DNA of 64,000 nt, taken from contig JAUCBJ010000021.1 of assembly GCA_032718475.1 (NCBI GenBank), forward strand, positions 1 through 64,000, in the 5' to 3' direction. The number at the start of each line of letters is the position of its first letter. The first letter of the stretch is position 1. Position numbers and translations under genes: made by a program. Shown here in pieces: positions 18,790 through 62,257 of the stretch. Under the pieces are notes generated by a model. That model did no database searches. It had not been told where the DNA came from and was given only the letters and a program-made list of their open reading frames with translations. This DNA is from Nemertoderma westbladi (lineage: Eukaryota > Animalia > Xenacoelomorpha).

Positions 18790-18925
18790 TTAGTCTGTAT
18801 TGCAGTGTAGGCATTAAATACAGTTTAATATTGTTCTGGTAAGAACATTAAAGGATATAGCTTCTTTATTGCAGTAAGCAATAAAGTTGAAAGTACCGGT
18901 CAACCGGTAAACCTGAACGGTCCAT

Positions 18926-19039: not shown

Positions 19040-19211
19040 CCGTATAAGTACAGCAGTATTATTCGATTTGATTATATATGCCGGTAGGTCTTAATAATTA
19101 ATCGGGGACGCCTGGTTTTTATTGGGATTTTACTTAGGCCTATTTCTGTCAGTTTTATTTATTTGTAGGTCAGTATTGAACAGAAGGCGTGTAAGCCTGA
19201 TCAGATTGTGC

Positions 19212-29045: not shown

Positions 29046-29148
29046 ACGCCGTCTGCGTAAAAAAGACTAACTGTTTAGAGTATCTTTATATTTTAGAAAC
29101 TGTGATTTGTTATATTTTATAGACTTAAATCCCATTTTCTGGGAGCGG

Positions 29149-30374
29149 TGTAAAAGCTTTTGCGTAATTAGCCGGTTATTATCCCCGTAAAGTACTCTGT
29201 GGTTGGTTTACCAGGCATAAAAAGGCCGTGTCCTTGCTGTACTGGTGTTTTGGAGGACATAAAAGCCATTTCTTCTGTATTTGTACTTTAGAGGACATAA
29301 TCTGTAATTTCGTGACGTAAAAAGCTCGATACTCTTGAAAACAGTGTCGCTACCATGACGACGGCTAACGGCTGATATTGCCACGTTGCCCCATAGCCCT
29401 GCTTTCTGTATCTGCCAATAGGATTTGAGTTGGTTTTGATTTTGACCTATCACAGATCTACTGAACTGAATTTCCTATCTGTATGCTCATTCTCTGTGGT
29501 GGGTGAGATCTTTGTAGAATAAGGGTAGCTGGTATTCTTATAGTTATTCTTATCAGTTTTTAGTGTTGTTGGTGATTCTAAGCCAGGAAGAACGGCTTTA
29601 GCCCTACACTAGTAGGCTTAATTATAAGGACATATATCCGTTATCTGCATTTATCACAACATAACATACCATACCTAATCAAACAACCTGTGCATACTTT
29701 ATATTGTTATACTGCTATTTACTGTCAGTTCTTCATAATATGGTTGATGAATTATTATATTTGGAATAACGATAAATAACCCCGAAACCCAATATTCTTG
29801 ATATACCGAAGGTAAGAGAGAAGGGTTACATATAACAATTGTGACTTATGTTAAAGTGGTTTGAAGTGAATCTAATGTTATTTGATAGACCCTACATGAT
29901 TCGGTCCGTGTTCCTTTTATATGTGACTAAAATCAGTGAAGATCTGCAGATTAGTGTGCAGTATTGTGCAGCATTGTGTATGAGTGAGACTGATAACGAA
30001 GCATTTCCTAAAGAATGCGCCATATATGTGAATTATAACTAAGCCATATCGTTGTGAGTAGTTTAAGTCATAACTCTGTTTATATAGATAGAGCGCCACG
30101 TCCTAAAGGAACTGTTAATATTTCCCGAAGGTGAATAATATTGTCAGAGATTATATAATACTGTCAGTCGAATAATACATTAGGCTTACATAGCAATAAG
30201 ATTAAGCCATCGAACCCAATCTCCCGGGTATATCCAGCGGGTGAATGATCGCGCACAGATTGGTTTCGACTAGTGTAGTGAATTAAATACTTGTCATAGG
30301 CTAAAGGTGATTTATTATCTAGAAGACATCCTAATTTGGCGGGTTAAACTGCCAAAGGTCTGAAAGCGCGAACA
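29149..30374 (+). repeat. Element B 3' LTR
   Basis: Repeat of 17553-18778; preceded by GGGAGCGG. Confidence 0.95.
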
Positions 30375-32436: not shown

Positions 32437-32933
32437 TTTGGAATTTAAGTAATTAAGATGCTATTCTACATGATTTGCAAAAATTTTATTTCTTGCTTAG
32501 TATTAGTATTATTATTAATATTAGTTAATACTAGTTAACATTAAAAAAAACTTGGTTGCGCTTAAAACCCTAAGGCTTTTACAGTATTCAATTTAATCAC
32601 ATGAAAGCTTTTTTATATGATAGATCAAAGATGTGGGCAACATAACTATCAGACGAAATTTTGTGAAAATTCACCTGCACTGCTAGGTGGCGCTGAAAAT
32701 TTATGCAAATTATTGGGTTTGTTATAAGTAGTATTACATGTTATTAACTAAAAATTTCAAAAAATTGTCTGATACTTTTATGCAGGGTTGCTATGTAGAC
32801 TCTCACACAATTTTTTAGAAAGTTGCTCAAAAATTGTAGAAGTAGTATAGGTTTTGAAGTTGACAATTTCCCGAAAAAAATATTTGGAGATAATATTAAT
32901 TATGTGAATAGTATTATATATTATATATATATA

Positions 32934-33282
32934 TATGTGAATAGTTAAATATAAGTTAATTATGTGAATAATATTGTTAAATATAAGTTAATTATGTGAA
33001 TAGTTAAATATAAGTTAATTATGTGAATAGTTAAATATAAGTTAATTATGTGAATAGTTAAATATAAGTTAATTATGTGAATAGTTAAATATAAGTTAAT
33101 TATGTGAATAGTTAAATATAAGTTAATTATGTGAATAGTTAAATATAAGTTAATTATGTGAATAGTTAAATATAAGTTAATTATGTGAATAGTTAAATAT
33201 AAGTTAATTATGTGAATAGTTAAATATAAGTTAATTATGTGAATAGTTAAATATAAGTTAATTATGTGAATAGTTAAATATA
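32934..33282. repeat. 27-bp minisatellite, about 13 copies
   Basis: Unit TATGTGAATAGTTAAATATAAGTTAAT repeated with no spacers. Confidence 0.95.
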
Positions 33283-33818
33283 ATGTTTCTACACTACGTG
33301 AATACCGAATAATACGTGAAAGTTGAATAGTTATTTTGGGATTGTTGGATAATATTATATTCTTATCATGAGCTCATCACATTTTATTTATTCCATTGAG
33401 TAGGCCCTTTTTTCGTTTTTTTTTTTTTCATCTTTCGTCGGCTATAATGGGAATATTCGCTCAACGGAGCAACACCAGTGTGCAGAATAATGTAACGGGA
33501 CAATATATTTTAAAGTTTGAAGGCTCGTAGTGAGATAATAATGGCCTTTTGGATCAATGGAAAGCCTTATTGTCTATACAGACAGGCGCCACATCGTCTG
33601 GTATAAAGGAACATGATGATCTTCCCCATATACCAAATGATATATCGGTCTCAAGAATATTTTATTTTCTTATATATATCTATTTGACTTAATAAATTTA
33701 AGGACTAAACATTTCTGTTTAAATTTCTGTCGATAATTTAAATTACGGTTTTCGAAAAAGAGAATATGAATGAAACGAATGCGAATTAACTTTTAGGAAA
33801 CAAAGGAAACAGAAGAAC

Positions 33819-34000
33819 AGTTAGATGGTTGCCAGGAGATGGTTCACTCTATAATTAAGTTAGATGGTTGCCAGGAGATGGTTCACTCTATAAATAAGTT
33901 AGATGGTTGCCAGGAGATGGTTCACTCTATAATTAAGTTAGATGGTTGCCAGGAGATGGTTCACTCTATAATTAAGTCAGATGGTTCACTCTATAATTAA
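33819..34000. repeat. 39-bp minisatellite, 4 copies plus a partial
   Basis: Unit AGTTAGATGGTTGCCAGGAGATGGTTCACTCTATAATTA. Confidence 0.95.
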
Positions 34001-34651
34001 GAAGCCCAATTTTAACTGATCAACTTTCACGAATCATTTAACTGCTCTGCTGTTGCATAAAGCACACCGAAATGTTACTAGACAGTTATTATAGTTTATT
34101 TATCTCCTTCTGAAATACACAGCCAGAGCGATTGCCATCGATCCAAGGCCAAGCAACAGAGCTATAATGGGGAACAGCAAGCTGAAAAATAAATGTTAAA
34201 TTACTAGTGATTACATGATAATAATAAAAATAATAATTTATTATTATTATTTATATTGTAAGCGGATTCAATTCCCTTCATTCTCCAGCCTAAAATGGGA
34301 CCAGTGGCATTTTACCAATATAGTTGGGGATACGAGATTACCAATAATAATCTCGCCTCATAACCAACTCGGTGGGGGGGGGGGGGGGGGGGGGGATACA
34401 GGCCCCAAAGCCACAGAGAGAGGGGAGAGGTCAAACCACCTCGGAGGGTAGAACACAGCTAGTCAAGGCTAGCGGCAGGGGGTAACACTCACACTCACAG
34501 GGAGTGCCAAAGTGACAATTAGTACATAAACCAATAGCAGGCAGGGGAGCACGTGGATAGAGATAGGAAAGCATCCATTGGGTACAGAAGGCCAAGAAGA
34601 GTAAGAGGTGAAACCAATATCTATGTGTATCAATCATATAGTTATTCTGTA

Positions 34652-36558
34652 TATTCGAAGAGACAGTAACAATACCTGCAATATCCTACTGTAAAGTTTG
34701 TGAATCAAATCATAAATCCGACCTTCTCACCAAAACAGTAAACTCTAAGTAAGCGAATATATTGCAGTATCGATCTCTTATAACCGGTGAGGCAGAAAAC
34801 AGTCTACGAGCAGACAAACTTCGATAAAACAAAATCCCGCGCAGCGAATCCTAAAATCAGGCTGACTCACTGACGGACTAAGGGGCTCGTATACCTTGCC
34901 GCGGTGTGATTTATATGGTTGGGCGAAAGGGACGCTAGCTAGGTACAGAGGCAGAGATTTGGAGATGTCTAACTAGCGGGCAAAGCACAGTAAGGACAAA
35001 GTTAATTTTATATATTTTGAGGTGTAAATAATTTCTAACGCGCGCGTGTGTTAATTCTAAACAGTCAAAAGCAGTTTTGCTCCTTCACATATATAATTAC
35101 TGGGTACGGTGTGCATTTTACAAATATTCTAATTTTGTAACTTGTAGGTCCAATACTCACGAATGATAAGGTTCCTTCCCCTCTTGCGTATTTCCAGGAC
35201 TCAAATTCAGGCATAAGGTTAATGCTACGCCCAGAATTCGGCAATTTTAATTTACCAGGTCCCTAATACTAAGAAGAAATATGTTAGTTTACTACTGTAG
35301 GCGTACAGTTACAAATAGCTATCCTGGCTCTTATCTAGAATTTTAGTCACCTAGGTAGGCTGGGTAACTTCCTATCAAGACGTTGGCGGGGACACGGTAG
35401 ATGTTAGTATATCCCTAATAGCCTCAATTTATTTTGCGCCTAGTTGTAAACTGCCCTACCGCCTGAACGGTACAATCCTAATTCAGGTGAAACACAGCAA
35501 CCCTCCTAGCCTACAAGTTCTAGTGCAATGGACACCGTTGTACTACAAATAGTCGCAGACGCACCTGCACTTAGCAAGAGTTAGGCGTACAGTTTGCTGC
35601 ACCCTACCAATGTGTATGCTTCGTACCGGTGTGCCTACGTCCTATCTGCGTACTAGTATCTGCCTGCTCTCTCTCTCCCCCCGTAGGAATGTGAAGGTCT
35701 ACTGTGGTTTTTTCCTGAATCAAGACAGTACGGTCCCTAAGATGTAATTTTAGGCTCACAGCGTGTCACTACTTCTACCCTTTTATCTTTGGTCTTACGC
35801 TTAGGTAGCAAGGCGTCGAACGCTGTCTAACCTTTCAGGCGATGGGCGAATAACTAAGGTGGTATTGCGGGTTGTCTCCTGTCTACATTCCCTTGATGTT
35901 CCCGTTCATCGCTGCGGCCCGATCTCTAGCCGGCCATCCTGATCCTAAGAGTGTTCACCGTAGTGAATCATGGTGAAAAGAAAAGCAGGTAGCGGTATTT
36001 CTGAATTTATTGCAGATAATAATACAAAATGTAATCTGAAAACTAATGACAGAATAAACAAATATCAGATAACTCAGAAGAGATAGAACATTGATAGATA
36101 GGATTGATAACTAATGAACAAATCGCACCTTTATATACCAAATTTGTGCCGCAATCAATCGAGAAAATTCTCGATTGTTCTATAGGTTCTAACAGGTTTT
36201 TAAAGATAACTATTGGTCCAGCTAATATATAACTTGCACGACATTGGTTACAATCAAATAACTACAGTCTCATTGGTTAATCTAGGTACAAACAAATGCA
36301 ATTTAATTTGTAGCGGTCAATTTAAATGAGTTGAAATTCTGCACAAAAAATAATTCGCACTTACTAGGATTCGAACTCAATACCTACTACACATATAATT
36401 TCCAACGCTCTACCGACTGAGCTACTGAACCACTTGACTAATAGGCGTACAATAGATATAGTAAATACAAATGAGGACTCAATGCAATCTTTTACAAAGT
36501 TAATTCGAATAAAATAAAATTTTGAAAATCCACGGCATTTAGGGAATATAATTCTATA
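34652..36558 (-). repeat. Element C 3' LTR
   Basis: Repeat of 49293-51199; preceded on the sense strand by GGAGCGG. Confidence 0.95.
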
Positions 36559-36689
36559 CCGCTCCATGAAAACAGGATATTATCGTGCATAAAATATACG
36601 GTTTTCACCAATAATCAATCAAACTATAGAATACTTAGGGCGTACTTACATATTTACAAATTAAATTTCAAACAATACTTCCTTTCTAC

Positions 36690-37445
36690 ATAATGATTCG
36701 ATACAAAATAATTACAAATTCAAACTTTACGTAGTTAATGCTTTACTAAGTAAGTACAATATAAATCTAAATTAAATTCACCAATATAAATCTATTGCAT
36801 CTCAATATTGCATAAATTCAAGCAATTACAAATACAAATAAATGAAAATCATAAGAAAGGCTCGCGAGTCTTCCATCTACTATTGCATCTCAAATATTGC
36901 ATAAATTCAAATAATTACAAATACTTTCGTGCCTAAATGTAGATTGCATAAGTTCGGAATAATTACAAATATGAGTCTTTCTAAGCACAAAACTTTCTAA
37001 CTATAAAACTTTCTAAATACAAAATATAACACTTTACAAATGAAACTATAAGAAAGGCCCACGAGTCTTCCATCTACTCATACTTTCTATTTCACTGTAA
37101 ATACAAATACTGCTTATAAGATATAAATTGCATAGTATTCGGAACAATATAAATTGCATAAGTTCGGAATAATTACAAATATAAAATATAAATTCTTACA
37201 AATATAAATTCTTACTAAATATAAGTCTTACTAAATATAGATATAAACTGCATAAGTTTAGAATAATATAAACTCCTTTGCATCTCAAATATGAAACATA
37301 CGCTTTCAAATATAAGTTCCTTCTAAATATAAACTTTCTAAATTTCATAAATTCGGAACAATACAAATTGTATAAGTTCGGATAAATATAAAATATATAA
37401 CTCAAATAAATCACAAATTCACAAGAAAGGCTCACGAGTCTTCCG
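36690..37445. repeat. AT-rich degenerate repeats in the C 3' UTR
   Basis: Recurrent TTGCATAAGTTCGGAATAATTACAAATA-like units and three AGAAAGGCYCRCGAGTCTTCC hairpin copies. Confidence 0.7.
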
Positions 37446-37464
37446 TCCACCCTTGCCCTCCCTT

Positions 37465-39068
37465 TTATCGCTTAGTTGATCGAGCCCTGCCGCGTCCTCG
37501 AAAACTGCGCACAGGTGACTTTGCTCGCGATATGGGACTTGTGGGGCGAGTCACTGGTTTCGTTTGGACGTTGAGAGACGGTGCGACTATTTCCTCGCAA
37601 ATTCGTCTATTTGGCATCCCAAAACCTCGACCGATTCCTCGTGACCGATCAGTTGTCACTACAGTTGGTAGAACGTCTGGGAACGCGCGAGAAACGGACG
37701 ACGCAGACCCAAGAGTAGCTTGCGCCCCCTTTTGATCAGCTGGTGTATGTCCCGATCCTCCTGTTGGTTCTCTAGGAAGCGATACCGTATCCCGAGTAAT
37801 TCGAATAGTCGTCTCAACTCCCTTGCGTTCTTCTATATTGATAGACTTCTTTAACTGTTGGCCCACTTTCTGGACCCGTATGATCCTACCCTGTCCGTCC
37901 TCCCGAGGGTGACGTGCAGACGGCGCAACCGGAGTGGCTGGTATATTTGTCGCCTCTAGGACCTCCTCTTCCTCGAATACGCTCGCTCGTATACGTTTAT
38001 GGTAAAACGCGGCTCGGTACGCCCATGCGACGGTTAACCAAGCTCCTTTATTCCGCCTTTCAGTTCGGAAACGATCGAATTCACCATACGTGATGCGATT
38101 AACGACTTTCTGAAAATTCCACGTGTTTTTGTTATCCGGGTGAATCTGTAATAGATACTCGCGCACTACTCGGAATCCACTGTCGTGGGGCAAAATATCG
38201 ACTACCTCGATAAGTTCGTCATATTGGGGCATAGCGGAGATGTATCCTTCCGACATCATCGTTTGGGGATTTACCGCCCAAAATCCAAGATGCGCTCTCA
38301 TCGGAAACCGTCTTCTTTGTGCCGATACATGTTCGTCGGCTAAATCTTCCCACTCATCGAATAATTTTCTCACGAGTTTTACAGATTCGTGTTCATAGGG
38401 TATGTCTCTTAGTTGGCATTCAGATGCTCGATGTCCTTTTATATTGCAATAAGTACATTGAGCCATAAATCTCCAGCAAGTATAAAAGGTATGAGACCCT
38501 TGATCTCCACACCATCCACAGATTAGCTGAGTCGTAGTAATGTGCTTTCCACTGCACTTGGTCGAATGATGTCCAGCGACGCCACATTTACCACACATCG
38601 TATTGGCAGGGTACCACACTCGTTCGTATATAAGATCTCCAATCGGTCGAGCGCTTCCTCCCACACTATAATCGTAATCATCTGGATCTATGGGTTGGTA
38701 GGTTTCTGAAGGTTGTATACAAACTATAGCATCTGTTGCTTCAAGTTGTCGAATCTCCGTCTGAGATTTCTTCGGGAGGTTCCTTTCTATCTCAAGAAGT
38801 TCCTCTAAAGGATCGTCAGCGATCGTAGTAGTTACTTCGAAATCATCACCAAGGTGACCGATAGGCGCACGCGTCTGCCGTGATTCGTTCGTAACCTCCA
38901 CGATACCGTCGTGTCATATTTAGTGTTTGCGAGTTTCGCTGTACTTTCTGATAATTCCTTTATACCAAATATAGTGTAGTCCTTGGCTCCAAATCTTTCG
39001 AATGGCGCTGCTGCCTCCTCTTGGATATCATATCCCCATCTCGGCTCTCCTTGTATCCCTTTCTCCAT
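37465..39068 (-). CDS. Extra 3' ORF of element C: triple CCHC-type zinc-knuckle protein with a basic RG tail (one frameshift near 38905)
   Basis: 478-aa ORF with CGKCGVAGHHSTKC, CGWCGDQGSHTFYTC, CTYCNIKGHRASEC and RGRGRAR; an overlapping ATG-initiated 78-aa ORF joins by a one-base shift. Confidence 0.75.
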
Positions 39069-39732
39069 AATTAGAGGTGTAGTTACATAATCATTACTAC
39101 TAGAGGGAATACAACAGAGTTTGTAGTTAGTTGTGAGGAGACGTGAGAGTTTCGTCTGCCCTTTGGGCTCGACAACGCTCTAACCTCCTACCCATAGCCT
39201 AAGATCTAGGGTTTCTTTAATGACACGCTGCTTCTTATCTAAAATTTTTTTTTTGCCGAAATAAAAACGAATTTGGGCTAAACTGGCTGTGAGTCTAAAA
39301 TACTCACTTTTTGATCCCAAACTATTATCAGAAAATAAGCAATCAAGAATTAGTAATAAATATAGGGGAGTCTATTTATTGACGTAACTTATTGAAACAA
39401 GACCGTGTAAAATTTAATTAAAATTTTAAGAAAGGCTCGCAAGTCTTCCTCTCTTGTTTCTCTAATTTTAAGTTCCACCCGACTGTACCCTGAAATCTAT
39501 TCACTGGAGAAAATTTTAAAATTTTTCAAATCCAAATGGATTGTCTAAAATTTCGAAAATGTCTCAATATTGTGAGTTCCAAGTAGAATTCCATTTCTTA
39601 TACCTACAAATCCCGCTCCTATGTGATACATAAGGGTACTACCCTCAATGTTCACATATAAAGACAATGGAATTCTACCGCTGTCCTTACTACAGTGTAC
39701 AGGTACGTGGAAATCTATTTTTAAACTCCTAA

Positions 39733-41826
39733 TTATTTACTAGTATTAGGTGGAGATTTGTAGTCTCCAGACTCGTTACGAGTCTCTTCAAGAAGTACGA
39801 GACGTTGAGTCGGTCTGTCTACTGTACGACCGTCAATTGTCCGTACCGTCACAGTTCTTGTCACTCCATCCATAGATGGATGTGTGGCTAAAATTACACC
39901 TGTTATCCAGAAGCGTCTTTTTAGATTCACTTCTGCTAACAGCACGTGATCTCCCGGCTTTAATGCGCGGGTGTTATTATACCAAGTTGTTCTGGCAGAA
40001 ATAGAGGGCAAATAATGGTTTTGCCATATTTCCCAGAATTTGTTAGCTAGTAGTTGCGTGATTTTCCACGCTTTTCTACCGTAGCTATCGCCTTCCATTG
40101 GAATAGAAATAGGCGTCAATGTGGTCGGTGCCTGCATTAGCAGGTGTGCCGGTGTCAAAGCAAACTGAGATTGTTTGTCATCGGGTACTAATACTATTGG
40201 TCTAGTATTTAGTATTGCCTCGATTTCAACAAACAGTGTTGTCAGTTGGTCGTCTGTCAATATGTGGTTTACTGGAATGACCTTTGCCATTGCCGTTTTT
40301 ATAGATCTAATCAATCTCTCCCAGACTCCGCCTCTCCATGGACTATCTGGAGGATTAAACTTCCAAACAATCTTGTGAGGTTGTAGTTCGTTCGAGATTT
40401 GATCATGATCTAATTTCTTAAAGGCTCTAGCAATCTCATTCCGAGCACCAACAAAGTTTGTCCCTTGGTCTGAGTACAAGCATTTCACTAGTCCGCGTCT
40501 AGCGATAAATCGCCGCAATGCTAGTATAAACGCGTTGGTGGAAAGATCCATCACACGTTCAATATGAACTGCCCTACTGGACATACATGTGAAAATCAGT
40601 CCCCAGCGTTTTACTAGTATACGTCCACGTTTCGTATGTATGGGACCAAAGCAATCAATTCCAGTCTCTGTAAAAGGTGGTCTGAATGCTTGAAGTCGTG
40701 CTTGTGGAAGTTCACTCATTTCTTGGGTACCTATTCTAGAATGTACCTTTTTACAAATAATACACGTACGTGTCACTGAACTTAATGCTTTACTGGGTCT
40801 AATTAATACAAATCTTGTACGTAAGTAGGAAAGACAGTGGTGTCTTCCAGCGTGTTTCAGATGTAAATGTGCGTCCAGTATCATTGCACGTTGTAGTTCG
40901 TGATGTTGTGGTATTATTATTGGGTATCTAAAGTTTGTGTTAAAGTCAATGTTTTGAAGCCGAGATTTATGACAAATTAAGCCATTATAAATAATCGGAC
41001 TCCAACTCAGTATTGGTGACGACTTGATTGGTTGACCTTGATTTATAGATGTGAATTCGCGCGCGAAATATCGCAGTTGGTAATGGCGAATTAATTTAAT
41101 CTCACACCTGTCAATCTCAGCCAATGTAAGTCGACGTGTAAAGTCGCGTTTGCCTTTAACGTATTGTACAAAACGTACAATCCACGCTAATTTTCGGCAA
41201 GCGTTCGTCCAAGAATCTGTTAAGTTTACAATACGGTCGACGTAAGTATTTGTGACGTCATCAGGTAAGTCAATGGAGAATTTGGAAGGTTTTGATTTAC
41301 TAGAAGGGCCCACGGGTCCGCCGGTAAGTATTCCCTTGTTGATTGTTGATCCGTCCGGGTCTACAAGTAATTTGTCCTTCTTCGTCTTCTTACCTTGGTT
41401 GTCAGTACTTTGTAAGTCGATCGTTAATGGTGGTTTGAACTCTATGGGGTCAGTGGGTTTCGGTAAACTTATTTTTCTGCCGATATTAATCCCAGGTCTC
41501 ACCATAGGTTGCAAGTTTGGTATGTCTCTTGAGCGCAAAGTAACACCTGTATTTACATTAGCGTAGGTACTACCCACATCTGTAATACATGAGGTTTCAC
41601 CGTGCTTATGGTCGCTCAAGTGTGTCAAAATTGGTAGTTTGTCAATACAAGGCCGCTCCAATAGGGAAACTGCGGCTTTTCTATTTGTCAATATGTTACT
41701 AGTGTCTGGTAGAACATTTTGTGACATGTCTGGTGAAATGTTTCGCGGAACATCCGGCGAAATATCTAATGACGTGTCTAGCAAAACGTCTGGTTGACTC
41801 TGGTAACGTATCTGGTTGTTTGTCAA
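39733..41826 (-). CDS. pol: Element C integrase (HHCC, DDE core, BEL C-terminal domain); separated from RT-RH by a 2-nt deletion near 41800
   Basis: HLHLKH..CIIC, GIDCFGP, YSDQGTNF, GGVWERLIRSIK, EIEAILNTRP, DGVTRTVTV, RPTQRLVLLE. Confidence 0.92.
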   Translation of the reverse strand: MTNNQIRYQSQPDVLLDTSLDISPDVPRNISPDMSQNVLPDTSNILTNRKAAVSLLERPCIDKLPILTHLSDHKHGETSCITDVGSTYANVNTGVTLRSRDIPNLQPMVRPGINIGRKISLPKPTDPIEFKPPLTIDLQSTDNQGKKTKKDKLLVDPDGSTINKGILTGGPVGPSSKSKPSKFSIDLPDDVTNTYVDRIVNLTDSWTNACRKLAWIVRFVQYVKGKRDFTRRLTLAEIDRCEIKLIRHYQLRYFAREFTSINQGQPIKSSPILSWSPIIYNGLICHKSRLQNIDFNTNFRYPIIIPQHHELQRAMILDAHLHLKHAGRHHCLSYLRTRFVLIRPSKALSSVTRTCIICKKVHSRIGTQEMSELPQARLQAFRPPFTETGIDCFGPIHTKRGRILVKRWGLIFTCMSSRAVHIERVMDLSTNAFILALRRFIARRGLVKCLYSDQGTNFVGARNEIARAFKKLDHDQISNELQPHKIVWKFNPPDSPWRGGVWERLIRSIKTAMAKVIPVNHILTDDQLTTLFVEIEAILNTRPIVLVPDDKQSQFALTPAHLLMQAPTTLTPISIPMEGDSYGRKAWKITQLLANKFWEIWQNHYLPSISARTTWYNNTRALKPGDHVLLAEVNLKRRFWITGVILATHPSMDGVTRTVTVRTIDGRTVDRPTQRLVLLEETRNESGDYKSPPNTSK

Positions 41827-44800
41827 TAGAAGGCCGCTCCAATAGAGAAACTGCGGCTTTACTATTTGTCAGTATGTTACTAGTGTCTGGTAGAACATTT
41901 TGTGATATGTCTGGCAAAATGTCTGGTTGGCTGTCTAGTAACGTGTCTGTTTGACCGTCTGGCGATATGTCTGGTGTAGAAAGGCTCGCAAGTCTTCCTC
42001 TCTTGACCTTTGAAGTTATATCTTTCCATTTCGCCTTCGGTTTTTTCTTGAGTTTAGCCGCCGTCCTTTTCTTTGCCTTCCCCTTTTTTGGTTTCTTGAT
42101 TTCGGCGTCCTTAGGGATGGTGTTAGACTTGTTGTCGTATAACGGTGGCCAATCTTGCGTCGATTTCTGCAAGAATTGGGGTCCGTGTTGCCAAAATTCT
42201 TTGTTCTCCGGTTTACAGAATTCCTCAGGCATCATTCCTCGCGACGCAATATCGGCTGGGTTTTGTGGTCCGGGACAATGTCGCCAATCTTCTTTTATTG
42301 AACGGTCTAGAATCTCTGCGCGACGGTTAGCTACGAATGTCTTGAATTCAAGTGTGTCGTTGTTTATGTAAAATAAAACCAACGTCGCGTTAGTCCAATA
42401 AAATATCTGTAAACTTGACTGTAGTTCTGTCTGTATAAGGTTCACGATGGTGGTTGACAGGGTTGCGGCTTGTAGCTCAGCTCGTGGTGTCGTCATATAC
42501 TTAGTAGGCATTGTTTTTGCCTTAGAAGTAATGAGCGAAACATCGAATTCTTCTGAGTCTACTTGTCTGCGCAAGTACGCTACCACACCAAAACCGTTGT
42601 CACTGGCGTCAGAAAAACAATGTAATTCCAAGTTGTCAGGAAACGTTGTTTGTAATGGAAAGTAGACTCTGGGTATGGAATAATCCTCTAGCGAAGATAA
42701 TTCTGCCTCCCAGGTCTTCCATAAGTCCACTTGGTCTGATGAGATCGGCTCGTCCCATGTCAGTCCATCTTTCCAAATACTGCGCATATAAATGCGGGCT
42801 TGCAGTATTATTGGACTGATGAATCCTAATGGATCGAACAATCGGCTCAATTTTGACAAGCATGATCTCTTTGTCAGTGTGTTTTCTTGACTGTCCAGTC
42901 TTACCTTCACTCGAAAGTTGTCCGTGTTTGGGTCCCAAAAGAGCCCCAACACCTTGGTCGTCGGTAGTGGTTCGAACTCTAGGTCTATGTCACCACCTCC
43001 ACGCTCAGTCGTTCCGAATGAGTCTACTAATTCGGCACTGTTTGAGGCGAATTTGGTGAGGTTAAAACCTCCGCCCGCTAAGCAGTCCCGTAATTGATGT
43101 GCTACTGTTGTAGCACGTTCTACTGTGTCGCAACTCTGTAAACCGTCGTCGACGTAAAAGTCACGTTCCACAATCCTAATTATCTCTGGGTCATACAAAT
43201 GTTTCTGATCCCTAGCGGCTTGCTTTAGGGCATACATCGTACAGTTTGGGCTGTCCCTGGCACCGAAAACGCGAACTTGCATTTGGTAAGTCGCCGGTGG
43301 TAGACTTAAGTCTCCTTCCGGATACCAGAGGAACCTCAAACTGTCTCTGTCTTGCTCTAACGCTCTCACTTGGTGAAACATAGCTTCAACGTCGCAAGTA
43401 AAAGCTACTTGACGCTGACGGAAGCGCATAATCACCCCCATAAGATAATTATTCATGTTTGGTCCATCCATCAACTTGCTATTGAGGGACATTCCCTCAA
43501 ACAGAGCAGCACAGTCATTGACTACACGTACTTTGTCTGGTTTGTCGGGGTGTCTCACAAAGTGATGTGGCAAATAGTATGTCTGGTTAGTCACTATCTC
43601 TGGGTTAGTCATTCGGATAGCGTATCCCTTGGTCAAATACGTCTCCATCTGAGTGTTGTACTGCAGATGGGCTTTCTCGTCCTTTAATAGACGTTGTCGT
43701 ATTGAGTGTAGACGTCTTAAAGCTAGTGGGTAGTTATTTATGAGTTTAGGACTTTGGCTACGCCATAACATCCCTACCTCATAATGTCCGTCTTTCGTCT
43801 GGCGGATAGTATCTTCCATGATCTTCAAAGATTGTTTCTCTTGTTCCGACATACATGGTTCGTAGCTACCAGGTTCAGCTGTATCTTGTTCTAACCACCT
43901 GATAGTCTTCTCCGTTAATTCTTTGTCCAATACAGCTTGTTCCACTTGATGATTTCTCAACTCGTCATCATCGATATCGACGGGCATTGTTGAGGTTGTT
44001 GGGGTAGGTAGACTCGCAAGCCTTCCGGCGTTATCATCTGTCTTCGATGGAATCTCTAGCTGACTCGTCTTCTCCCCAAGTTCTAAACTCACCTGGTGGA
44101 TTAGCTGCTCCTTGTGACTTATCATACTAGTTACACGTCTGTCATGTTTTGTATGTAAGGTAGTATGGTCCACGTCGTGTGAAAAGGAATGAATTGAATT
44201 TGTAGTTAATAAACTACATGTACTTTGTACATCGTCTTCCTCGTCACTTATGTCCAGTGTGCGCACAGGCGCTCGAGTATACCACCCTATCGGCGTCCTA
44301 CAGGCGTATGCGTTTCCCGCTACGACTGCCGATGGTCTGGTTTCCCACACTTGATGTAGGTTGAATTGGTCTGTCCCGATCAGCATTGCTACCGATCTAT
44401 AATTGACAGGACATTCAGGTACACCAAGGTGTCTGAAATACTTACGGTCCTCCAAGGATTGCTCTGGGACAGGACCTAGTAGGTTACTAAAGTCTTTGGT
44501 GGCCGCAAAAGTCAAATCCTTGAAGGGTAACAAAGACCTCTCCTTTTCGCTGTGTTGCGATTTTGGAAGAAGAGTGTCTAAGTCCAACTTAACTCGTGTC
44601 ACTGGTATTGCACGTTGTCCGTGCATACTACTTACGGTGTAACTGACGCGCTTACCTTGTCTGAGATCCGTTACTACATCAGCTATCTGTTCATCCACGT
44701 AGCTGTGAGATGAGGCTGAATCCAAGATAGCGTAGATTCTCTTGCTCCCCTTTATGCCAGTAATCTTAATCGGAATTACACTGAATCCCTTTAATTGGTC

Positions 44801-45550
44801 AGTCGTCAGAAGCGCGATCGATGGTTGTTCGTCTCCATCAGAATATACGTCGTCGTCTTCTGACTCTTCGTCCGACGATCCGGATTGTTCTGAGAAGCAA
44901 TCCTTGATATGTGTCACAAAGGTTGGAGTCGTTTTCGATTCTCGATTTTTGTAGGCCGCATTACATTTCGCTGCTGCTTCCGGGTATTCCCTGGCGAAGC
45001 GTTTTGTCGGCGTGTGGCTGTCTGTATGGAGCAGACCGTCGTGGTTGCGTCCACAGGATGGACAAGTGTCGGTATTTGGGCAATCCTTGCGAACGTGTCC
45101 GTGTCGCGTACACCGCCAACAAGAGTCCAATGGCCGTATCTGCAGCCGTCGTTCTTCCGAGTTTAACTCGCGAAACTGTCGACAACCTCTCAACTTGTGA
45201 CCGATATACCGCTTGCCTAGATGCTCGCAGTATTGGCAGCCGCTGAAGTTGGTACTGAGTTGCTGTCTCGTCTGTTTTGTCCCAATGGGCGCAGATACCC
45301 TACTACCGTCCGAGAATTGTCGTGATTCCGTCGGTGTGGCGTAAGTGGCCGTCTTAGTGGATGTTGTCTGGGGTTTTTGTCGGTTTGAGGATGGCAAGGT
45401 GATTCCTTCTGCCACGATGTGCTGGTCAGTGTAGTTGGATCGAGTTTCTACCACTGCCTCCCTGGATATCAAAAGGTACACATCCTCCAGTTTTAAGAAT
45501 CCACCCCGCTCTTCTCGCTGGTATTCGATCTTCCTCCACTCCCGACGAAG
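41699..45550 (-). CDS. pol: Element C Gag zinc knuckles, protease, RT and RNase H
   Basis: CWRCTRHGHVRKDC, AILDSAS, YYLPHH..KVRVVND, DVEAMFHQV, FGARDSP, FYVDD, FDPLG, FSDAS, TPRAELQAA, NPADIASRG. Confidence 0.95.
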   Translation of the reverse strand, partial: LRREWRKIEYQREERGGFLKLEDVYLLISREAVVETRSNYTDQHIVAEGITLPSSNRQKPQTTSTKTATYATPTESRQFSDGSRVSAPIGTKQTRQQLSTNFSGCQYCEHLGKRYIGHKLRGCRQFRELNSEERRLQIRPLDSCWRCTRHGHVRKDCPNTDTCPSCGRNHDGLLHTDSHTPTKRFAREYPEAAAKCNAAYKNRESKTTPTFVTHIKDCFSEQSGSSDEESEDDDVYSDGDEQPSIALLTTDQLKGFSVIPIKITGIKGSKRIYAILDSASSHSYVDEQIADVVTDLRQGKRVSYTVSSMHGQRAIPVTRVKLDLDTLLPKSQHSEKERSLLPFKDLTFAATKDFSNLLGPVPEQSLEDRKYFRHLGVPECPVNYRSVAMLIGTDQFNLHQVWETRPSAVVAGNAYACRTPIGWYTRAPVRTLDISDEEDDVQSTCSLLTTNSIHSFSHDVDHTTLHTKHDRRVTSMISHKEQLIHQVSLELGEKTSQLEIPSKTDDNAGRLASLPTPTTSTMPVDIDDDELRNHQVEQAVLDKELTEKTIRWLEQDTAEPGSYEPCMSEQEKQSLKIMEDTIRQTKDGHYEVGMLWRSQSPKLINNYPLALRRLHSIRQRLLKDEKAHLQYNTQMETYLTKGYAIRMTNPEIVTNQTYYLPHHFVRHPDKPDKVRVVNDCAALFEGMSLNSKLMDGPNMNNYLMGVIMRFRQRQVAFTCDVEAMFHQVRALEQDRDSLRFLWYPEGDLSLPPATYQMQVRVFGARDSPNCTMYALKQAARDQKHLYDPEIIRIVERDFYVDDGLQSCDTVERATTVAHQLRDCLAGGGFNLTKFASNSAELVDSFGTTERGGGDIDLEFEPLPTTKVLGLFWDPNTDNFRVKVRLDSQENTLTKRSCLSKLSRLFDPLGFISPIILQARIYMRSIWKDGLTWDEPISSDQVDLWKTWEAELSSLEDYSIPRVYFPLQTTFPDNLELHCFSDASDNGFGVVAYLRRQVDSEEFDVSLITSKAKTMPTKYMTTPRAELQAATLSTTIVNLIQTELQSSLQIFYWTNATLVLFYINNDTLEFKTFVANRRAEILDRSIKEDWRHCPGPQNPADIASRGMMPEEFCKPENKEFWQHGPQFLQKSTQDWPPLYDNKSNTIPKDAEIKKPKKGKAKKRTAAKLKKKPKAKWKDITSKVKRGRLASLSTPDISPDGQTDTLLDSQPDILPDISQNVLPDTSNILTNSKAAVSLLERPSIDKQPDTLPESTRRFARHVIRYFAGCSAKHFTRHVTKCSTRH

Positions 45551-48484
45551 TCAATGGTGGAGTCGTCCTATGATCTTTAATAGGACTGTAGGGGTATTCC
45601 CGTAGTCAAGTTGTCCAATGGATCTCAAAGTAGTGATAGCGTTCTTTATCTCGTCAGCCAGTTTCAATAAGTCTACGGGTTTAGTAATAGCCCCTCCCTT
45701 ACAGAGTTCCTCTATCACTGACCTGGCCATGCTGACTGTACCTCCGTAGATCGAAGTTAAACGATCGTACGCTAGTTCGAAAGCGTCCGGTACACCAACG
45801 AAGGTCTCCGCCAAACGTTTAGGTTCTCCTGACAACGTTTGAAGCAGGTAATTAAACTTCTCCCGTGATGTAAAGGCGCACACGGCGATCTGAGATTCGA
45901 TATAGTCTACGAAAGTATGCCAGTGTTTTGAGCTACCGGAAAACTTCGGTGGTTGTTGTACCGGCAATCCCTGTCTGGCTGCGAATTTCGCTATCTCCTC
46001 AGCAACGTTCAGAGTTTCGCGTCCTTGGTTGGTAATCTGGTTGATATCCCTTCTTGGCGCTTTTCCCTGATACGAAGTATGTTTTGAAGGTACCGGTCTT
46101 TGTGGTTCCTTCGGGTGTCTATTGTGTTCGAATTCAGTGTTCCTCGAACTATCGGTTTGAACTTCCTCCAGACGTTCCTCAATCTGAGCCAACTTGTTAA
46201 CAACTGGTCGCAGGATGTCGGCGAACTGTTGTGTACTGATTGCGTCCGTTGGTTGTAACGTCTTCTGTGTTGGTGTATTTTGTGGAGGATTGTCTACAAA
46301 GGAGTTGTCTGAACGCTCGCGTTTATATTCATCGGCCGCCCCTGTTCTAAATACCTCGCGTTTCGGGTAATCCGATTCGCTCGAAGTACTACTATCATCT
46401 GGATATGGTGGTCGACGTGTTCGCGTCCGTTGCGTCGTACGAATTCTAACGTTTCGTTTCGGAACATCGTCCACTGATCTCCGTTGTTCGGTAGGCTCAC
46501 AAGTCTTCCTCGAAGTCGTAGATTGCGATGTAAACTGGTTGAACGGTCGCGTATCCACTGGTCTCCGTTGTTCGGTAGGCTCACAAGTCTTCCTCGAAGT
46601 CGTAGATTGCGATGTAAACTGAACCGGTGGTCGGACGACAGCGTTTGAATCCAAAGGCTTTGTAGGCCTAAACGTCATTGGGTACGTGTAGTGCATAACG
46701 AGTTTTGGTGTCGAAGGTGGACTCACCTGTTTAGTCGTCAGTAGTGCAGGTCTGGTCAACAAACTACTACGATCTGTAATCGGTGGGTTACTTACCTTGA
46801 CTTTTAGAATAGGCGACGACGTTGCTCTTGGCGGTGTAAACTTGTCCGGAATAACAAACCTGTGTTCCGTCGCACCACGGATAGGAGAAATGTTACTACT
46901 ACCCGCAATCGAAACAGGTTCCTTAGTCGTAACTGGTGCAAACATAGGAGTTACTTGAGGGAATCTTTGACATAAGTCTTTAACTAATTGTCGTTCCCGT
47001 CCAGGTGCTCCTATCGAACCTTCCTTCATTCGTTCCTGGATTTGGCGGTGCCTTACCTCCATCTGGTCTAAATCATGTCCATCTCGAGATCTCATCGATC
47101 GATCGCGGGCTTGTAGATCCAGGTCTTCCTTGGCGTTGGCTAATTCTCTCGCCTTCTTCTCGAGTTCGAAACGAAGTTTAACTTCTTTCTCGCGTTGTTC
47201 CGTTTGTTGTTGTTGCGCCTCGAACTCCGCTTGTCGTATAGCTGATTGAGCCTTTATTTGCCGTTTTTTCATTTCGGTTCTCGCTTCTGAAGCTAACCTT
47301 TGTCGCTCTAACTCGGACGCTGCCGCTGCCGCTGCCGCTGCTGCTTGTCGCTCTAACTCGGCCGCTGCCGCTTGTCGCTCTAACTCGGCCGCTGCCGCTT
47401 GTCGCTCTAACTCGGCCGCTGCCGCTTGTCGCTCTAACTCGGCCGCTGCCGTTCGTTGCGCTAACTCGGCCACTGCTGCTTGTTGTGCAATGTCCAACTC
47501 TAACCTTTCCATTTCGGCTACTTCCAACTCAGCTTGTTCTTGCAGATGAGAGATTCTCGCAACATTCGCAACGCGTAGTTTCTCTTCTTCTGCTGCTACT
47601 TGTGCCATTAAGAATTGAGTTTGTTCCTCCCACTCTTGTTGTTGTCTGTAGATCTGCTGTTGTCGAGCAATTTCTGACGTAGCCATACTCACCTCGCCAA
47701 TTTCGCTGCGAATACTCACCAGTGATTGATCTAGTGTTCCCGGTACCGGTTCGATTTGTGCGAGTGAAGTTTCCCTCGTAGCCTCCGGCACGGTTTCCCA
47801 ATCTCCGACGTCCTCGCCGCACATACGTAAGTGATCCGTCAGGTGTTTCAATTGTCCATCCAGCCTATACAGTTCCTGTTCTTCCTCGGGCTGCAATAAT
47901 TCGTCCGAAACTGACTCACCTAACAACTGGTCCGCTTGTTCCTGTTGTATCTGCCTAATCGTCGACTTAAACTGAATCAGTTTCTCTCTAGCGATCATTA
48001 GTTTCTCGAGGATTCTAAGTTGAGTATCCATGTCCTGTCTCTGTCTAGCTAGATCTTGTAGACCAATTAGGTTATCTACGGACTTATATACTTTACTCTG
48101 TACTCTAACCTGGAGGGTGTAGAACTCGAATCGAGACATCGGAGCGGTCAACTCGTCTAATATGCGTTGGCCTTCTCCAATACTCCTGGTTATATGCGCC
48201 ATGTATCCTCCGACGCTTCTAACCACACTTTCTGTGCTTCCTGCTGAACTTACCATCTCCGTTTCCCTGTATCTAGGTTGCGGGACCGTTAGGAAATCCT
48301 CAGTCCTGCCGTCGCCTCGTACTACGGCATCCGGTACTCCCGTTGGATGTACTGGTGACGCGCACGGTGTAGGTTCGGTAGGCTCACGAGTCTTCCCCTG
48401 TGGTTCTTCCGCTTCTGACTTATCTCCGTCACATGAGTCATAGTCGGTTTGTGTATTTTTCGTATAGTCTTGTTTGTCACTCAT
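45551..48484 (-). CDS. gag: Element C Gag N-terminal part (coiled coil, AAAELERQ repeats, DUF1759-like); in-frame TGA at 45551-45553
   Basis: PPKFSGSSKHWHTF..KFNYLLQTLSGEPK; the frame continues after the stop into LRREWRK and the downstream ORF. Confidence 0.9.
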   Translation of the reverse strand: MSDKQDYTKNTQTDYDSCDGDKSEAEEPQGKTREPTEPTPCASPVHPTGVPDAVVRGDGRTEDFLTVPQPRYRETEMVSSAGSTESVVRSVGGYMAHITRSIGEGQRILDELTAPMSRFEFYTLQVRVQSKVYKSVDNLIGLQDLARQRQDMDTQLRILEKLMIAREKLIQFKSTIRQIQQEQADQLLGESVSDELLQPEEEQELYRLDGQLKHLTDHLRMCGEDVGDWETVPEATRETSLAQIEPVPGTLDQSLVSIRSEIGEVSMATSEIARQQQIYRQQQEWEEQTQFLMAQVAAEEEKLRVANVARISHLQEQAELEVAEMERLELDIAQQAAVAELAQRTAAAELERQAAAAELERQAAAAELERQAAAAELERQAAAAAAAAASELERQRLASEARTEMKKRQIKAQSAIRQAEFEAQQQQTEQREKEVKLRFELEKKARELANAKEDLDLQARDRSMRSRDGHDLDQMEVRHRQIQERMKEGSIGAPGRERQLVKDLCQRFPQVTPMFAPVTTKEPVSIAGSSNISPIRGATEHRFVIPDKFTPPRATSSPILKVKVSNPPITDRSSLLTRPALLTTKQVSPPSTPKLVMHYTYPMTFRPTKPLDSNAVVRPPVQFTSQSTTSRKTCEPTEQRRPVDTRPFNQFTSQSTTSRKTCEPTEQRRSVDDVPKRNVRIRTTQRTRTRRPPYPDDSSTSSESDYPKREVFRTGAADEYKRERSDNSFVDNPPQNTPTQKTLQPTDAISTQQFADILRPVVNKLAQIEERLEEVQTDSSRNTEFEHNRHPKEPQRPVPSKHTSYQGKAPRRDINQITNQGRETLNVAEEIAKFAARQGLPVQQPPKFSGSSKHWHTFVDYIESQIAVCAFTSREKFNYLLQTLSGEPKRLAETFVGVPDAFELAYDRLTSIYGGTVSMARSVIEELCKGGAITKPVDLLKLADEIKNAITTLRSIGQLDYGNTPTVLLKIIGRLHH

Positions 48485-49281
48485 TTCGGTAGTTGTAAGT
48501 CAAGTAAAGTGAGTGTCAAGGTATCAAATTTACCGTATTTTATCTAAACGGTACTAATTACAGTCATATAAAATTAGCCTACCGGCCGATTTTATAGCAG
48601 ATGGATAAAATTAGCCTAGACGGCCAATTTTACAGCAAATAAATGTCACGGAATAAGTATATAATAAAATTAGCCTAGCGGCCAATTTTATAACAAATAA
48701 ATCGGATAACGATATGCGTTATCAAAAGGTAAATTAAATACAATAATACGGACTAATTCAGCAATGAACAAAGAAATCATACGGAATGCATAAATACTTG
48801 AGACAGTGGAACCCACAATAATTTTAACTAATACGGTAATGCCTAACTTATTTATGCAACTTTTCGAACTCACCCACTCCAATAATTCTCCAGAAAAACA
48901 GATTCCCAGATACAAACCGGACGTGAACCTTTCCGTTTTCAGCGTTGCGGACGAAGCGCGATTTTCCCAACCAAAGTTGTTGAGTTATCTATCTCCCAAA
49001 CTTGCTAAACACGGTCTTGCTCCCGTTACAGTCTAGAAATGAGTTCTGAATCCTGAAAAACAAAAGAGTTAGGTTTTACTTTTACGAAAAATTTTGTACC
49101 GGTACAATATGGTATTTAAACCCTTTTAAACACCGGTATTCAATTCCAAAATATTTTACACGCGGTTCAAATCAAATTTTATTTCAAAAAATTAGCACTT
49201 AGCTAATCAAATATAAATTTTTACCTCAAAATACAAAATTTTCAAATAACTTTAGTCCTACCGAACCGTAGTTCAGTAAAA

Positions 49282-49292
49282 CACATTCCTAC
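49282..49292 (-). other. Element C non-tRNA primer-binding site (sense GTAGGAATGTG)
   Basis: Abuts the 5' LTR; 11/11 complementary to LTR 50324-50334 (sense CACATTCCTAC). Confidence 0.85.
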
Positions 49293-50770
49293 TATTCGAA
49301 GAGACAGTAACAATACCTGCAATATCCTACTGTAAAGTTTGTGAATCAAATCATAAATCCGACCTTCTCACCAAAACAGTAAACTCTAAGTAAGCGAATA
49401 TATTGCAGTATCGATCTCTTATAACCGGTGAGGCAGAAAACAGTCTACGAGCAGACAAACTTCGATAAAACAAAATCCCGCGCAGCGAATCCTAAAATCA
49501 GGCTGACTCACTGACGGACTAAGGGGCTCGTATACCTTGCCGCGGTGTGATTTATATGGTTGGGCGAAAGGGACGCTAGCTAGGTACAGAGGCAGAGATT
49601 TGGAGATGTCTAACTAGCGGGCAAAGCACAGTAAGGACAAAGTTAATTTTATATATTTTGAGGTGTAAATAATTTCTAACGCGCGCGTGTGTTAATTCTA
49701 AACAGTCAAAAGCAGTTTTGCTCCTTCACATATATAATTACTGGGTACGGTGTGCATTTTACAAATATTCTAATTTTGTAACTTGTAGGTCCAATACTCA
49801 CGAATGATAAGGTTCCTTCCCCTCTTGCGTATTTCCAGGACTCAAATTCAGGCATAAGGTTAATGCTACGCCCAGAATTCGGCAATTTTAATTTACCAGG
49901 TCCCTAATACTAAGAAGAAATGTGTTAGTTTACTACTGTAGGCGTACAGTTACAAATAGCTATCCTGGCTCTTATCTAGAATTTTAATCACCTAGGTAGG
50001 CTGGGTAACTTCCTATCAAGACGTTGGCGGGGACACGGTAGATGTTAGTATATCCCTAATAGCCTCAATTTATTTTGCGCCTAGTTGTAAACTGCCCTAC
50101 CGCCTGAACGGTACAATCCTAATTCAGGTGAAACACAGCAACCCTCCTAGCCTACAAGTTCTAGTGCAATGGACACCGTTGTACTACAAATAGTCGCAGA
50201 CGCACCTGCACTTAGCAAGAGTTAGGCGTACAGTTTGCTGCACCCTACCAATGTGTATGCTTCGTACCGGTGTGCCTACGTCCTATCTGCGTACTAGTAT
50301 CTGCCTGCTCTCTCTCTCCCCCCGTAGGAATGTGAAGGTCTACTGTGGTTTTTTCCTGAATCAAGACAGTACGGTCCCTAAGATGTAATTTTAGGCTCAC
50401 AGCGTGTCACTACTTCTACCCTTTTATCTTTGGTCTTACGCTTAGGTAGCAAGGCGTCGAACGCTGTCTAACCTTTCAGGCGATGGGCGAATAACTAAGG
50501 TGGTATTGCGGGTTGTCTCCTGTCTACATTCCCTTGATGTTCCCGTTCATCGCTGCGGCCCGATCTCTAGCCGGCCATCCTGTTCCTAAGAGTGTTCACC
50601 GTAGTGAATCATGGTGAAAAGAAAAGCAGGTAGCGGTATTTCTGAATTTATTGCAGATAATAATACAAAATGTAATCTGAAAACTAATGACAGAATAAAC
50701 AAATATCAGATAACTCAGAAGAGATAGAACATTGATAGATAGGATTGATAACTAATGAACAAATCGCACC

Positions 50771-50917
50771 TTTATATACCAAATTTGTGCCGCAATCAAT
50801 CGAGAAAATTCTCGATTGTTCTATAGGTTCTAACAGGTTTTTAAAGATAACTATTGGTCCAGCTAATATATAACTTGCACGACATTGGTTACAATCAAAT
50901 AACTACAGTCTCATTGG
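50771..50917 (-). promoter_or_regulatory. Putative Pol II promoter: three CCAAT boxes about 30 bp apart and TATATAAA
   Basis: ATTGG on + at 50853, 50884 and 50913; TTTATATA at 50771-50778. Motif match only. Confidence 0.55.
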
Positions 50918-51003
50918 TTAATCTAGGTACAAACAAATGCAATTTAATTTGTAGCGGTCAATTTAAATGAGTTGAAATTCTGCACAAAAAATAATTCGCA
51001 CTT

Positions 51004-51072
51004 ACTAGGATTCGAACTCAATACCTACTACACATATAATTTCCAACGCTCTACCGACTGAGCTACTGAACC
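51004..51072 (-). other. tRNA-derived A-box/B-box cassette in the C LTR (copy at 36363-36431)
   Basis: Sense GGTTCAGTAGCTCAGTCGGTAGAGCG...GAGTTCGAATCCT; intact D-stem GCTC/GAGC, degenerate anticodon and acceptor arms. Confidence 0.7.
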
Positions 51073-51851
51073 ACTTGACTAATAGGCGTACAATAGATAT
51101 AGTAAATACAAATGAGGACTCAATGCAATCTTTTACAAAGTTAATTCGAATAAAATAAAATTTTGAAAATCCACGGCATTTAGGGAATATAATTCTATAC
51201 TGTATTACTGATTTACTGGTCAGTTCATTAATCACAGAGTTGCAGACCGGTTATAGTTTTTGACCGTTATCTAGTATCAATTACATATTTGCTGTTATTC
51301 TGTATTGCGATACGGATGACGGATTGCGGATGACGAGACATTAGACGGATCCCATTTCTCAAGTACCTGATCAAGCACTGACGAAAATGTGGGAGCCCGA
51401 CAGGAGGGGACGGAGAACAAAACAAACATCGGTTGAGTATAGGAGAACGGGGGGAAGTATGGAGAGGAGGTGTTGACATGCGTAGAAGTGAGAGGAGTGC
51501 AATTCAAGCGTGGGGAGCGAGCAGTGAGAGAGGAAGAGTCCCAAGGGACCAGAGAGAGAATAAGGGACAACAGGGTCCGTGAGAGAGTTTTTGAGTAGAG
51601 TTAAAGAAAATTGTGTGGAGAGAGAGCACAATTGTCTCAAACAGAGACACCAGATACCTTGGTGCAACATAGCTCACGATTGCACCAAGGAGGGCTAGTA
51701 ATAACCCACCCAGGGGGGGTGGTCAGGAAAGCCGACCCCGAGAAAAGAACTCCACCCCACACCCAATACTAGATTGGGTTCCAGCGGAATTGAAGCGCAC
51801 TTAAGAGAGATGCTATCTTCTTACCGGGAAGATAGCATGGGGGGAGGGGAG

Positions 51852-59994: not shown

Positions 59995-60122
59995 CTGTAA
60001 ATATTAATACATTGTACATCAGAAGGCATTATATGTTTTTGTACCTTTCTTACAAAAATGTATGACAGTTGCATTCATATGGAGAAGGGGACCATATATT
60101 GCACATCACAATAACCAATAAG

Positions 60123-62029: not shown

Positions 62030-62257
62030 TGAAGGGATCGAGTTACGTGATCTGTGTACAATGGTAATAGTATATATATTGAATAGAGGTTTATTAAATG
62101 AGTTATAATTGGCTATATTCCGGTTTAAATAGTTGAAAAGTTCAAAATTAACATGGCAATATAATTATGATTTATATTAAACATTAAATTATTATAAGTA
62201 ATTAAAAACAAATAAATAAGTAAACCAGATATTAAAAATGTTAATGCATTTCAAAAT

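Follow-up and report, generated by a model that had tools for sequence, protein, structure and literature searches.

Retrotransposons whose long terminal repeats (LTRs) lack TG...CA ends are rare but known, as a preliminary description of the DNA considered here had noted. In plants, seven non-TGCA motif types have been reported, 89% in Copia, and AtRE1 has TA...TA ends (bioRxiv 10.1101/137141). Bel/Pao elements are said to have conserved terminal repeats (PMC3601003). According to the profile of the ICTV, the international virus taxonomy committee, Belpaoviridae are primed by tRNA and have an 18-nt primer-binding site (PBS) for tRNA-Arg/Gly, LTRs of 0.2–1.2 kb and genomes of 4.2–10 kb (PMC8742986). 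Self-priming of the Tf1 type is known in Tf1/sushi elements, Tcn1 and plant TAR Copia elements (PMC4600332, PMC6317226, bioRxiv 2022.12.06.519325). The present analysis deals with 64,000 nt of the genome of Nemertoderma westbladi (contig JAUCBJ010000021.1, positions 1–64,000; hereafter the window), in which a TA...TA element, C, is accompanied by two neighbouring comparators, A and B. C inserted recently and belongs to a Bel/Pao family that is abundant and divergent and has TA...TA LTR ends.

Termini and primer-binding site of element C

C is a Bel/Pao LTR retrotransposon of 16,548 nt on the minus strand (34652–51199). Its LTRs, 1,907 nt each, show 3 mismatches between them (99.84% identity). 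Both read TATAGAAT...TTCGAATA in the sense direction (34652–36558; 49293–51199) with CTGTA on each side, and all four LTR ends agree, so the TA...TA ends initially reported for both LTRs were borne out. The features on which the comparison is based are as follows.

34647–34651, no strand: target site duplication (TSD) CTGTA, left copy
34652–36558, minus strand: 3′ LTR of C, 1,907 nt, sense TATAGAAT...TTCGAATA
35683–35693, minus strand: second copy of the 11-nt self-primer site of C, in the 3′ LTR
36559–36565, minus strand: tract GGAGCGG of polypurine tract (PPT) type, shared unchanged by A and B, adjoining the 3′ LTR
49282–49292, minus strand: PBS of C, 11 nt, GTAGGAATGTG, adjoining the 5′ LTR
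49293–51199, minus strand: 5′ LTR of C, 1,907 nt, sense TATAGAAT...TTCGAATA
50324–50334, minus strand: self-primer site of C, CACATTCCTAC, LTR nt 866–876, exact complement of the PBS and predicted transcript start
51200–51204, no strand: TSD CTGTA, right copy
2282–14721, minus strand: element A, TG...CA, with Gag, a protease-like region and an 11-nt self-primer/PBS pair of its own
17553–30374, plus strand: element B, TG...CA, with its own 11-nt self-primer/PBS pair

A and B have the ends TGTAAAAG...CGCGAACA and 5-bp TSDs (GTACT and GGCCA), which confirms that they carry TG...CA and that both ends of C are changed. When set in register, the termini of C differ from those of A and B only in the second and the penultimate base, and a terminal inverted repeat TAT...ATA stands where A and B show TGT...ACA. 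C sits within one unit of a host repeat, and a paralog near 52200 represents the uninterrupted site. This empty site confirms a clean insertion, while its own differences leave it unable to decide the register to 1 nt. Since a clean 5-bp TSD adjoins both TA ends, the view that an integrase joined TA-3′ ends is supported for this copy of C.

It had been claimed that the boundaries are fixed independently by the TSD, the GGAGCGG tract and the abutting PBS. This holds for the tract and the PBS through alignment with A and B, but not for the TSD, as four registers fit the repeats of C: a TSD of 4 bp with GT...TA, of 5 bp (CTGTA) with TA...TA, of 5 bp (TGTAT) with GT...AT and of 6 bp with TA...AT. 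None of the four gives TG...CA, that is, canonical CA-3′ on both joined strands. The TA...TA register was chosen because the internal markers align with A and B at shift 0. The junction of the PPT with the unique 3′ region (U3) is identical to theirs at 12 of 15 positions at this shift and at 4–6 at shifts 1–3; the last 8 nt of the unique 5′ region (U5) agree with A at 5 of 8 positions against 1–3 at other shifts; and the 11-nt PBS begins at the first post-LTR base in A, B and C.

Ratios of CpA/TpG and TpA are near 1 in the C LTR and in the window, with no loss of CpA/TpG and no excess of TpA. Decay in place, by repeat-induced point mutation (RIP) or through methylcytosine, was considered as a source of the TA ends and is ruled out by these ratios and by the 99.84% identity of the LTRs.

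No TGG start, likeness to a tRNA 3′ end or 18-nt tRNA-Arg/Gly site was found at the PBS of C, in a comparison that did not extend to the host tRNA set or to primers made of tRNA fragments. In all three elements the abutting PBS has an exact 11-nt complement inside the LTR (at nt 866 in C, 421 in A and 486 in B). Among other internal 11-mers, such a complement was found for 7 of 10,106, 3 of 10,348 and 10 of 12,712 in the three elements. The three PBSs are different, and each fits its own LTR only, with at least 3 mismatches in the LTRs of the other elements. In the alignment, the self-primer sites of A and B share one column; 5 of their 11 positions differ, each change being matched in the PBS. 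Judging from this complementarity, it is likely that A, B and C prime reverse transcription with their own RNA and not with tRNA. In the predicted fold of the C leader, primer and PBS pair with a probability of 0.93–1.0 for 10 of the 11 pairs, nt 14–23 pair with the U5 end, and the terminal GAATA (the last 5 nt of the LTR) is unpaired.

Other copies of the family were sought as short Logan unitigs and contigs in sequencing runs. Four runs from three studies contain C, and one of these runs may be the source of the window. On 2.6 kb around the 5′ LTR of C, 5,167, 3,468, 2,189 and 186 contigs per run were placed, most of them 90–100% alike. Judged from these numbers, the family is abundant; contig counts were the only sign of abundance used, and summed contig depth was not taken as copy number. 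The 71-nt PBS/U5 junction of C is covered by 136, 84 and 8 contigs from runs X1, X3 and X4, and by none from run X5. The bridging contigs shown carry 1–8 other letters at positions that are not displayed. A tally of differing letters, restricted to places away from the contig ends, was empty and was not counted as evidence. Contigs continuing beyond the PBS match C or read T-A, and none reads T-G (16 of 21 loose-end matches shown); T-A also follows the PBS in variants with a different sub-terminal sequence or with a duplicated U5 end plus a PBS remnant. At the U3 end, two X4 contigs run into the PPT just as in the window. Thus, contig junctions from three studies support TA...TA as a family trait.

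As a separate observation, contigs of runs X1–X4 at 49258–49328 suggest variants of C in which the U5 end is duplicated and a PBS remnant lies between both ends. They look as if unremoved primer-side sequence had become fixed in the LTR.

A metagenome scan confirmed 548 Bel/Pao-like loci, the best 80 of which served as an outgroup. A long-range repeat was present in 28 of the loci of at least 4 kb. Where the U3 start was readable beside the PPT, all 14 clear cases gave TG (L008 and L009 being the same element, and L055 after trimming of a short chance extension). The U5 end was fixed by LTR–LTR alignment in eight loci, with CA in seven, among them L067 after a second reading based on its terminal inverted repeat, and TA in one. 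The latter, L028, has TGTAGC...GCTATA in both LTRs (566–911 and 7075–7401), i.e., TG...TA. An abutting self-complementary PBS was found in four of the eight (11/11 in L033, 10/11 in L028, 9 exact in L050 and L067); of the remaining four, two have a tRNA-type TGG PBS and two neither type. Self-primer candidates in 12 and 15 loci with the U5 end not fixed were at chance level and were dropped. Positions 1–15884 of L009 form a tandem Bel/Pao array of identical units with a period of 6,138 nt, perhaps an artefact from assembling a circular graph.

Proposed explanation and its alternatives

In our opinion, the following account as a whole is probable: C belongs to a TA...TA family that primes itself with the first 11 nt of its RNA, forms blunt cDNA ends and is inserted by a tolerant integrase, where self-priming, bluntness and tolerance are what we infer. 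Transcription of C would start at LTR nt 866, and nt 1–11 of the RNA would pair with the PBS and then be cut off as the primer, as in Tf1. The cDNA ends of Tf1 are blunt and need no processing. Since PBS and PPT abut the LTR without a spacer, the cDNA ends of C, and likewise of A and B, would also be blunt and require no 3′ processing, so that C would skip the step at which retroviruses read CA most strictly. The terminal A-3′OH would be kept, and the penultimate base alone would have changed, from cytosine to thymine on the joined strand, at both ends. In the simplest reading, the integrase would be tolerant and this change would have been fixed at each end in turn; one-sided states do exist, namely L028 here and AcCOPIA1 and TARE1 in plants (PMC5659011). 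The presence of both changes in both LTRs of C results from reverse transcription, in which each end is copied into the two LTRs. A 5-bp stagger at integration would then yield the TSD.

The strongest alternative, which we nevertheless hold to be unlikely, is that the integrase of C and the ends it joins evolved together and that the enzyme now favours TA-3′; such a true switch of specificity would isolate C from TG...CA families such as A and B. It would suit the symmetric change at both ends with the TAT...ATA inverted repeat kept, and the U5 contig variants that differ sub-terminally yet begin with T-A after the PBS. By motif spacing, the end-binding region of HIV-1 integrase presumably corresponds in C to the residues before the GG-WE motif of the catalytic helix. 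The five residues preceding this motif are rare, each being common to 0–17% of 120 homologs. In HIV-1, 3′ processing beside CA is the highly specific step, and Q148, K156 and K159 of this region bind the viral DNA end (PMC2615046). However, dozens of positions throughout the C integrase, not only those near the DNA end, deviate from the majority residue, and the protein forms a long branch (1.51), which makes the difference in the loop unspecific. In addition, a similar P-W loop occurs in L059 (ends not read), and the TA end of L028 goes along with a loop of ordinary type ahead of the catalytic Glu.

The comparison of end-contacting residues that had been proposed as a check thus lends no support to a specially TA-adapted integrase, considering the ordinary loop of L028 and a C integrase divergent throughout. 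The use of TA could not be pinned on particular residues, as the divergence is unspecific and the alignments with PDB structures miss the catalytic helix. A profile search of PDB with the C integrase gave foamy-virus and Ty3 integrases, with alignments stopping short of this helix. Judged from sequence, the loop residues would be compatible with a switch as well as with its absence. Tolerance of TA-3′ by the C integrase is likely the better explanation because L028 ends in TG...TA with an ordinary integrase loop and is unrelated to C, the two not grouping in a quick integrase tree.

It is very unlikely that the boundaries of C should be shifted by one base, to the equally non-canonical GT...AT, GT...TA or TA...AT, so that the PBS or PPT would overlap the LTR or be separated from it by one base. 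Three other registers do fit the repeats, one contig joins foreign sequence at 49294, and a one-base PBS/LTR overlap has been described in the gypsy lineage (PMC3286476). But only at shift 0 do the C ends align with those of A and B, both of which have a 5-bp TSD and no spacer; the primer complement begins precisely with the base following TA, and the terminal inverted repeat is lost in the other registers. Most improbable of all is a limitation of TA...TA, through mutation or assembly error, to this copy or a small sub-lineage of a mostly TG...CA family: the ends of other family members were read in contigs and not in a census, C has reading-frame breaks and the mismatch places in bridging contigs are not displayed, but the four LTR ends agree, contigs of three studies repeat both the T-A beside the PBS and the U3/PPT junction, and no deamination or RIP-like bias is present.

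A number of observations weigh against the account of tolerance after self-priming. The copy evidence consists of short unitigs and contigs and is no census of copies, and the sole displayed contig joining unrelated sequence to the U5 end (run X3, place 49294) does so one base inward of the TA register. The L028 sequence comes from a short-read contig, and its LTRs are 74% identical and have no TSD. Self-priming is not sufficient for TA ends, as A, B, L033, L050 and L067 show its signature yet keep CA, and fission-yeast Tf elements always keep CA. Global predicted folds of A and B disfavour the primer/PBS duplex (probability 0.04 and 0.01), and no third duplex was seen at the U5 end in the predicted fold of C. 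When both ends of a whole family change symmetrically, preference explains this more easily than drift does. Finally, the stop codon and frame change in C mean that its own integrase may not have inserted this copy.

A broader idea may be offered tentatively, although we consider it rather improbable: Bel/Pao may include widespread tRNA-independent self-priming lineages, as a third superfamily with the Tf1 mechanism, and the unspaced cDNA ends of C may have let its integrase switch from CA-3′ to TA-3′. If true, this would provide a natural animal model of changing integrase end specificity and of families ceasing to cross-mobilise.

Coding content and surroundings

The internal part of C contains the following open reading frames (ORFs), listed together with a stretch in the LTRs.

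45551–48499, minus strand: ORF1, Gag (DUF1759, PF03564), separated by a stop codon from ORF2, which is in the same frame
41699–45550, minus strand: ORF2, end of Gag with zinc knuckles, then protease-, reverse transcriptase (RT)- and RNase H-like regions (PF05380, Pao domain)
39733–41868, minus strand: ORF3, in a frame different from ORF2, integrase with an HHCC zinc domain (PF17921), a DDE core and DUF5641 (PF18701)
37465–38913, minus strand: extra ORF after pol, 482 aa from stop to stop, with three Cys/His knuckle-like motifs
36368–36440 (3′ LTR) and 51009–51081 (5′ LTR), minus strand: tRNA-like A-box/B-box stretch in U3, a pattern match

ORF1 and ORF2 are split by a stop codon, and ORF2 and ORF3 by a frame change within a repeated linker; both may be lesions, assembly errors or programmed. 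The domain order, PF03564 and PF05380 followed by PF17921 and PF18701, is that of Bel/Pao (protease, RT, RNase H, integrase), and C also has the two LTRs around gag-pol and the TSD of this group. Pfam RVT_1 did not score in C, and the RT was recognised by motif. The best homologs bear the same Bel/Pao domains. The C integrase is 32–45% identical to animal Bel/Pao proteins, and no relative above 45% identity was found among 7,994 scored candidates or, in a second search, among 1.84 billion representatives. A viral-contig search revealed no relative. In the quick integrase tree, built from the 80 metagenomic Bel/Pao-like loci with no outgroup or named references, the long branch of C has an unsure place. 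No chromodomain match was obtained in C, which bears Bel/Pao domains and does not belong to the Tf1/sushi chromoviruses; by analogy, C would prime like Tf1 while being no chromovirus. C is an atypical element of the Bel/Pao lineage: its domain content agrees with this lineage, and its PBS and size depart from the ICTV descriptions, in which the size ranges are descriptive.

No Pfam family was found for the extra ORF between pol and the 3′ LTR. ARAGORN and Rfam called nothing in C, including the tRNA-like U3 stretch. In run X4, the summed contig depth over 50727–51074 is approximately 10 times that of the rest of the C LTR, which suggests a captured tRNA-derived repeat. A C. elegans Bel element of Cer7 type reportedly codes for a tRNA-like primer itself, which differs from the mechanism considered for C. 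LTR segments similar to tRNA are known in Helenus terminal-repeat retrotransposons in miniature (PMC10886601).

A and B are young, related, Bel/Pao-derived elements of opposite orientation, both with Gag and a protease-like region. They need a helper because no match to an RT core or integrase was found in them. The earlier suggestion that C may not be this helper is likely correct, given the lack of blastn similarity between the LTRs of C and A/B and a Gag identity of 26–27%; the end dinucleotides, to which it had appealed, do not decide the question alone.

Several other repeats were noticed in the window. Tandem arrays of 27-nt and 39-nt units lie to the left of C (32892–33364 and 33780–34013). 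A broken non-LTR retrotransposon with an endonuclease (PF14529) and an RT (PF00078) is situated between A and B (14899–17430, minus strand). A further A/B-like LTR fragment ending in CGCGAACA is located at about 61430–62030 on the plus strand; its 5′ end and TSD were not found. At 60117–60384 there is a 130-nt inverted repeat (98%, 8-nt spacer) containing a tRNA-like A/B-box sequence, which looks like head-to-head copies similar to short interspersed elements.

Comparison with known systems

Literature searches of partial coverage found no report of a Bel/Pao element with TA ends or another exception, and none of self-priming in Bel/Pao, most subscription papers as well as Repbase and GyDB lying outside their coverage. 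Taken alone, the TA...TA ends are a modest extension of the plant precedent to animal Bel/Pao. They have a practical cost, as strict TGCA filters discard an abundant family. The warning that LTR finders will miss this family is justified under strict TGCA settings only; LTR_retriever has a non-TGCA module. TATA is among the default motifs of this program. The self-priming signature weighs more than the ends, since Belpaoviridae are described as tRNA-primed; annotation based on the PBS would label A, B and C as lacking one. The three elements form matched natural pairs, with CA versus TA ends, three self-primers and the same PPT. They make it possible to test the role of the penultimate cytosine without 3′ processing and to ask how often self-priming arose.

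C shares with Belpaoviridae the LTR-gag-pol organization, the order of protease, RT, RNase H and integrase, Pao-specific Pfam domains, a short PPT and a 5-bp TSD. Unlike the ICTV description, it has an 11-nt self-complementary PBS, LTRs of 1.9 kb, a length of 16.5 kb, an extra 3′ ORF and TA...TA ends.

Among elements with non-TGCA ends, AtRE1 (Arabidopsis Copia, TA...TA), AcCOPIA1 (TG...TA) and TARE1 (TA...CA) show, like C, the penultimate change of cytosine to thymine at one or both joined ends (bioRxiv 10.1101/137141, PMC5659011), and Tos17 (TG...GA) is listed with them as a non-TGCA comparator. All four are plant Copia elements, mostly with short LTRs, whereas C is an animal Bel/Pao element with long ones. 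Zam and other errantiviruses (AG...YT) are, like C, animal LTR elements without TG...CA (PMC3601003), but they belong to another superfamily and have another terminal motif, while C retains the terminal T...A.

Concerning priming, the Tf1/sushi chromoviruses, Tcn1, plant Copia TAR/Houba and C have in common a PBS that abuts the LTR and is complementary to an internal LTR site, and a second duplex (in C a predicted one), in which the sequence after the primer pairs with the U5 end. The 'pretzel' of Tf1 consists of three duplexes, two of which C is predicted to form. The known self-primers are Ty3/gypsy chromoviruses or Copia elements, whereas C has Bel/Pao domains and a predicted R-U5 of approximately 1,040 nt.

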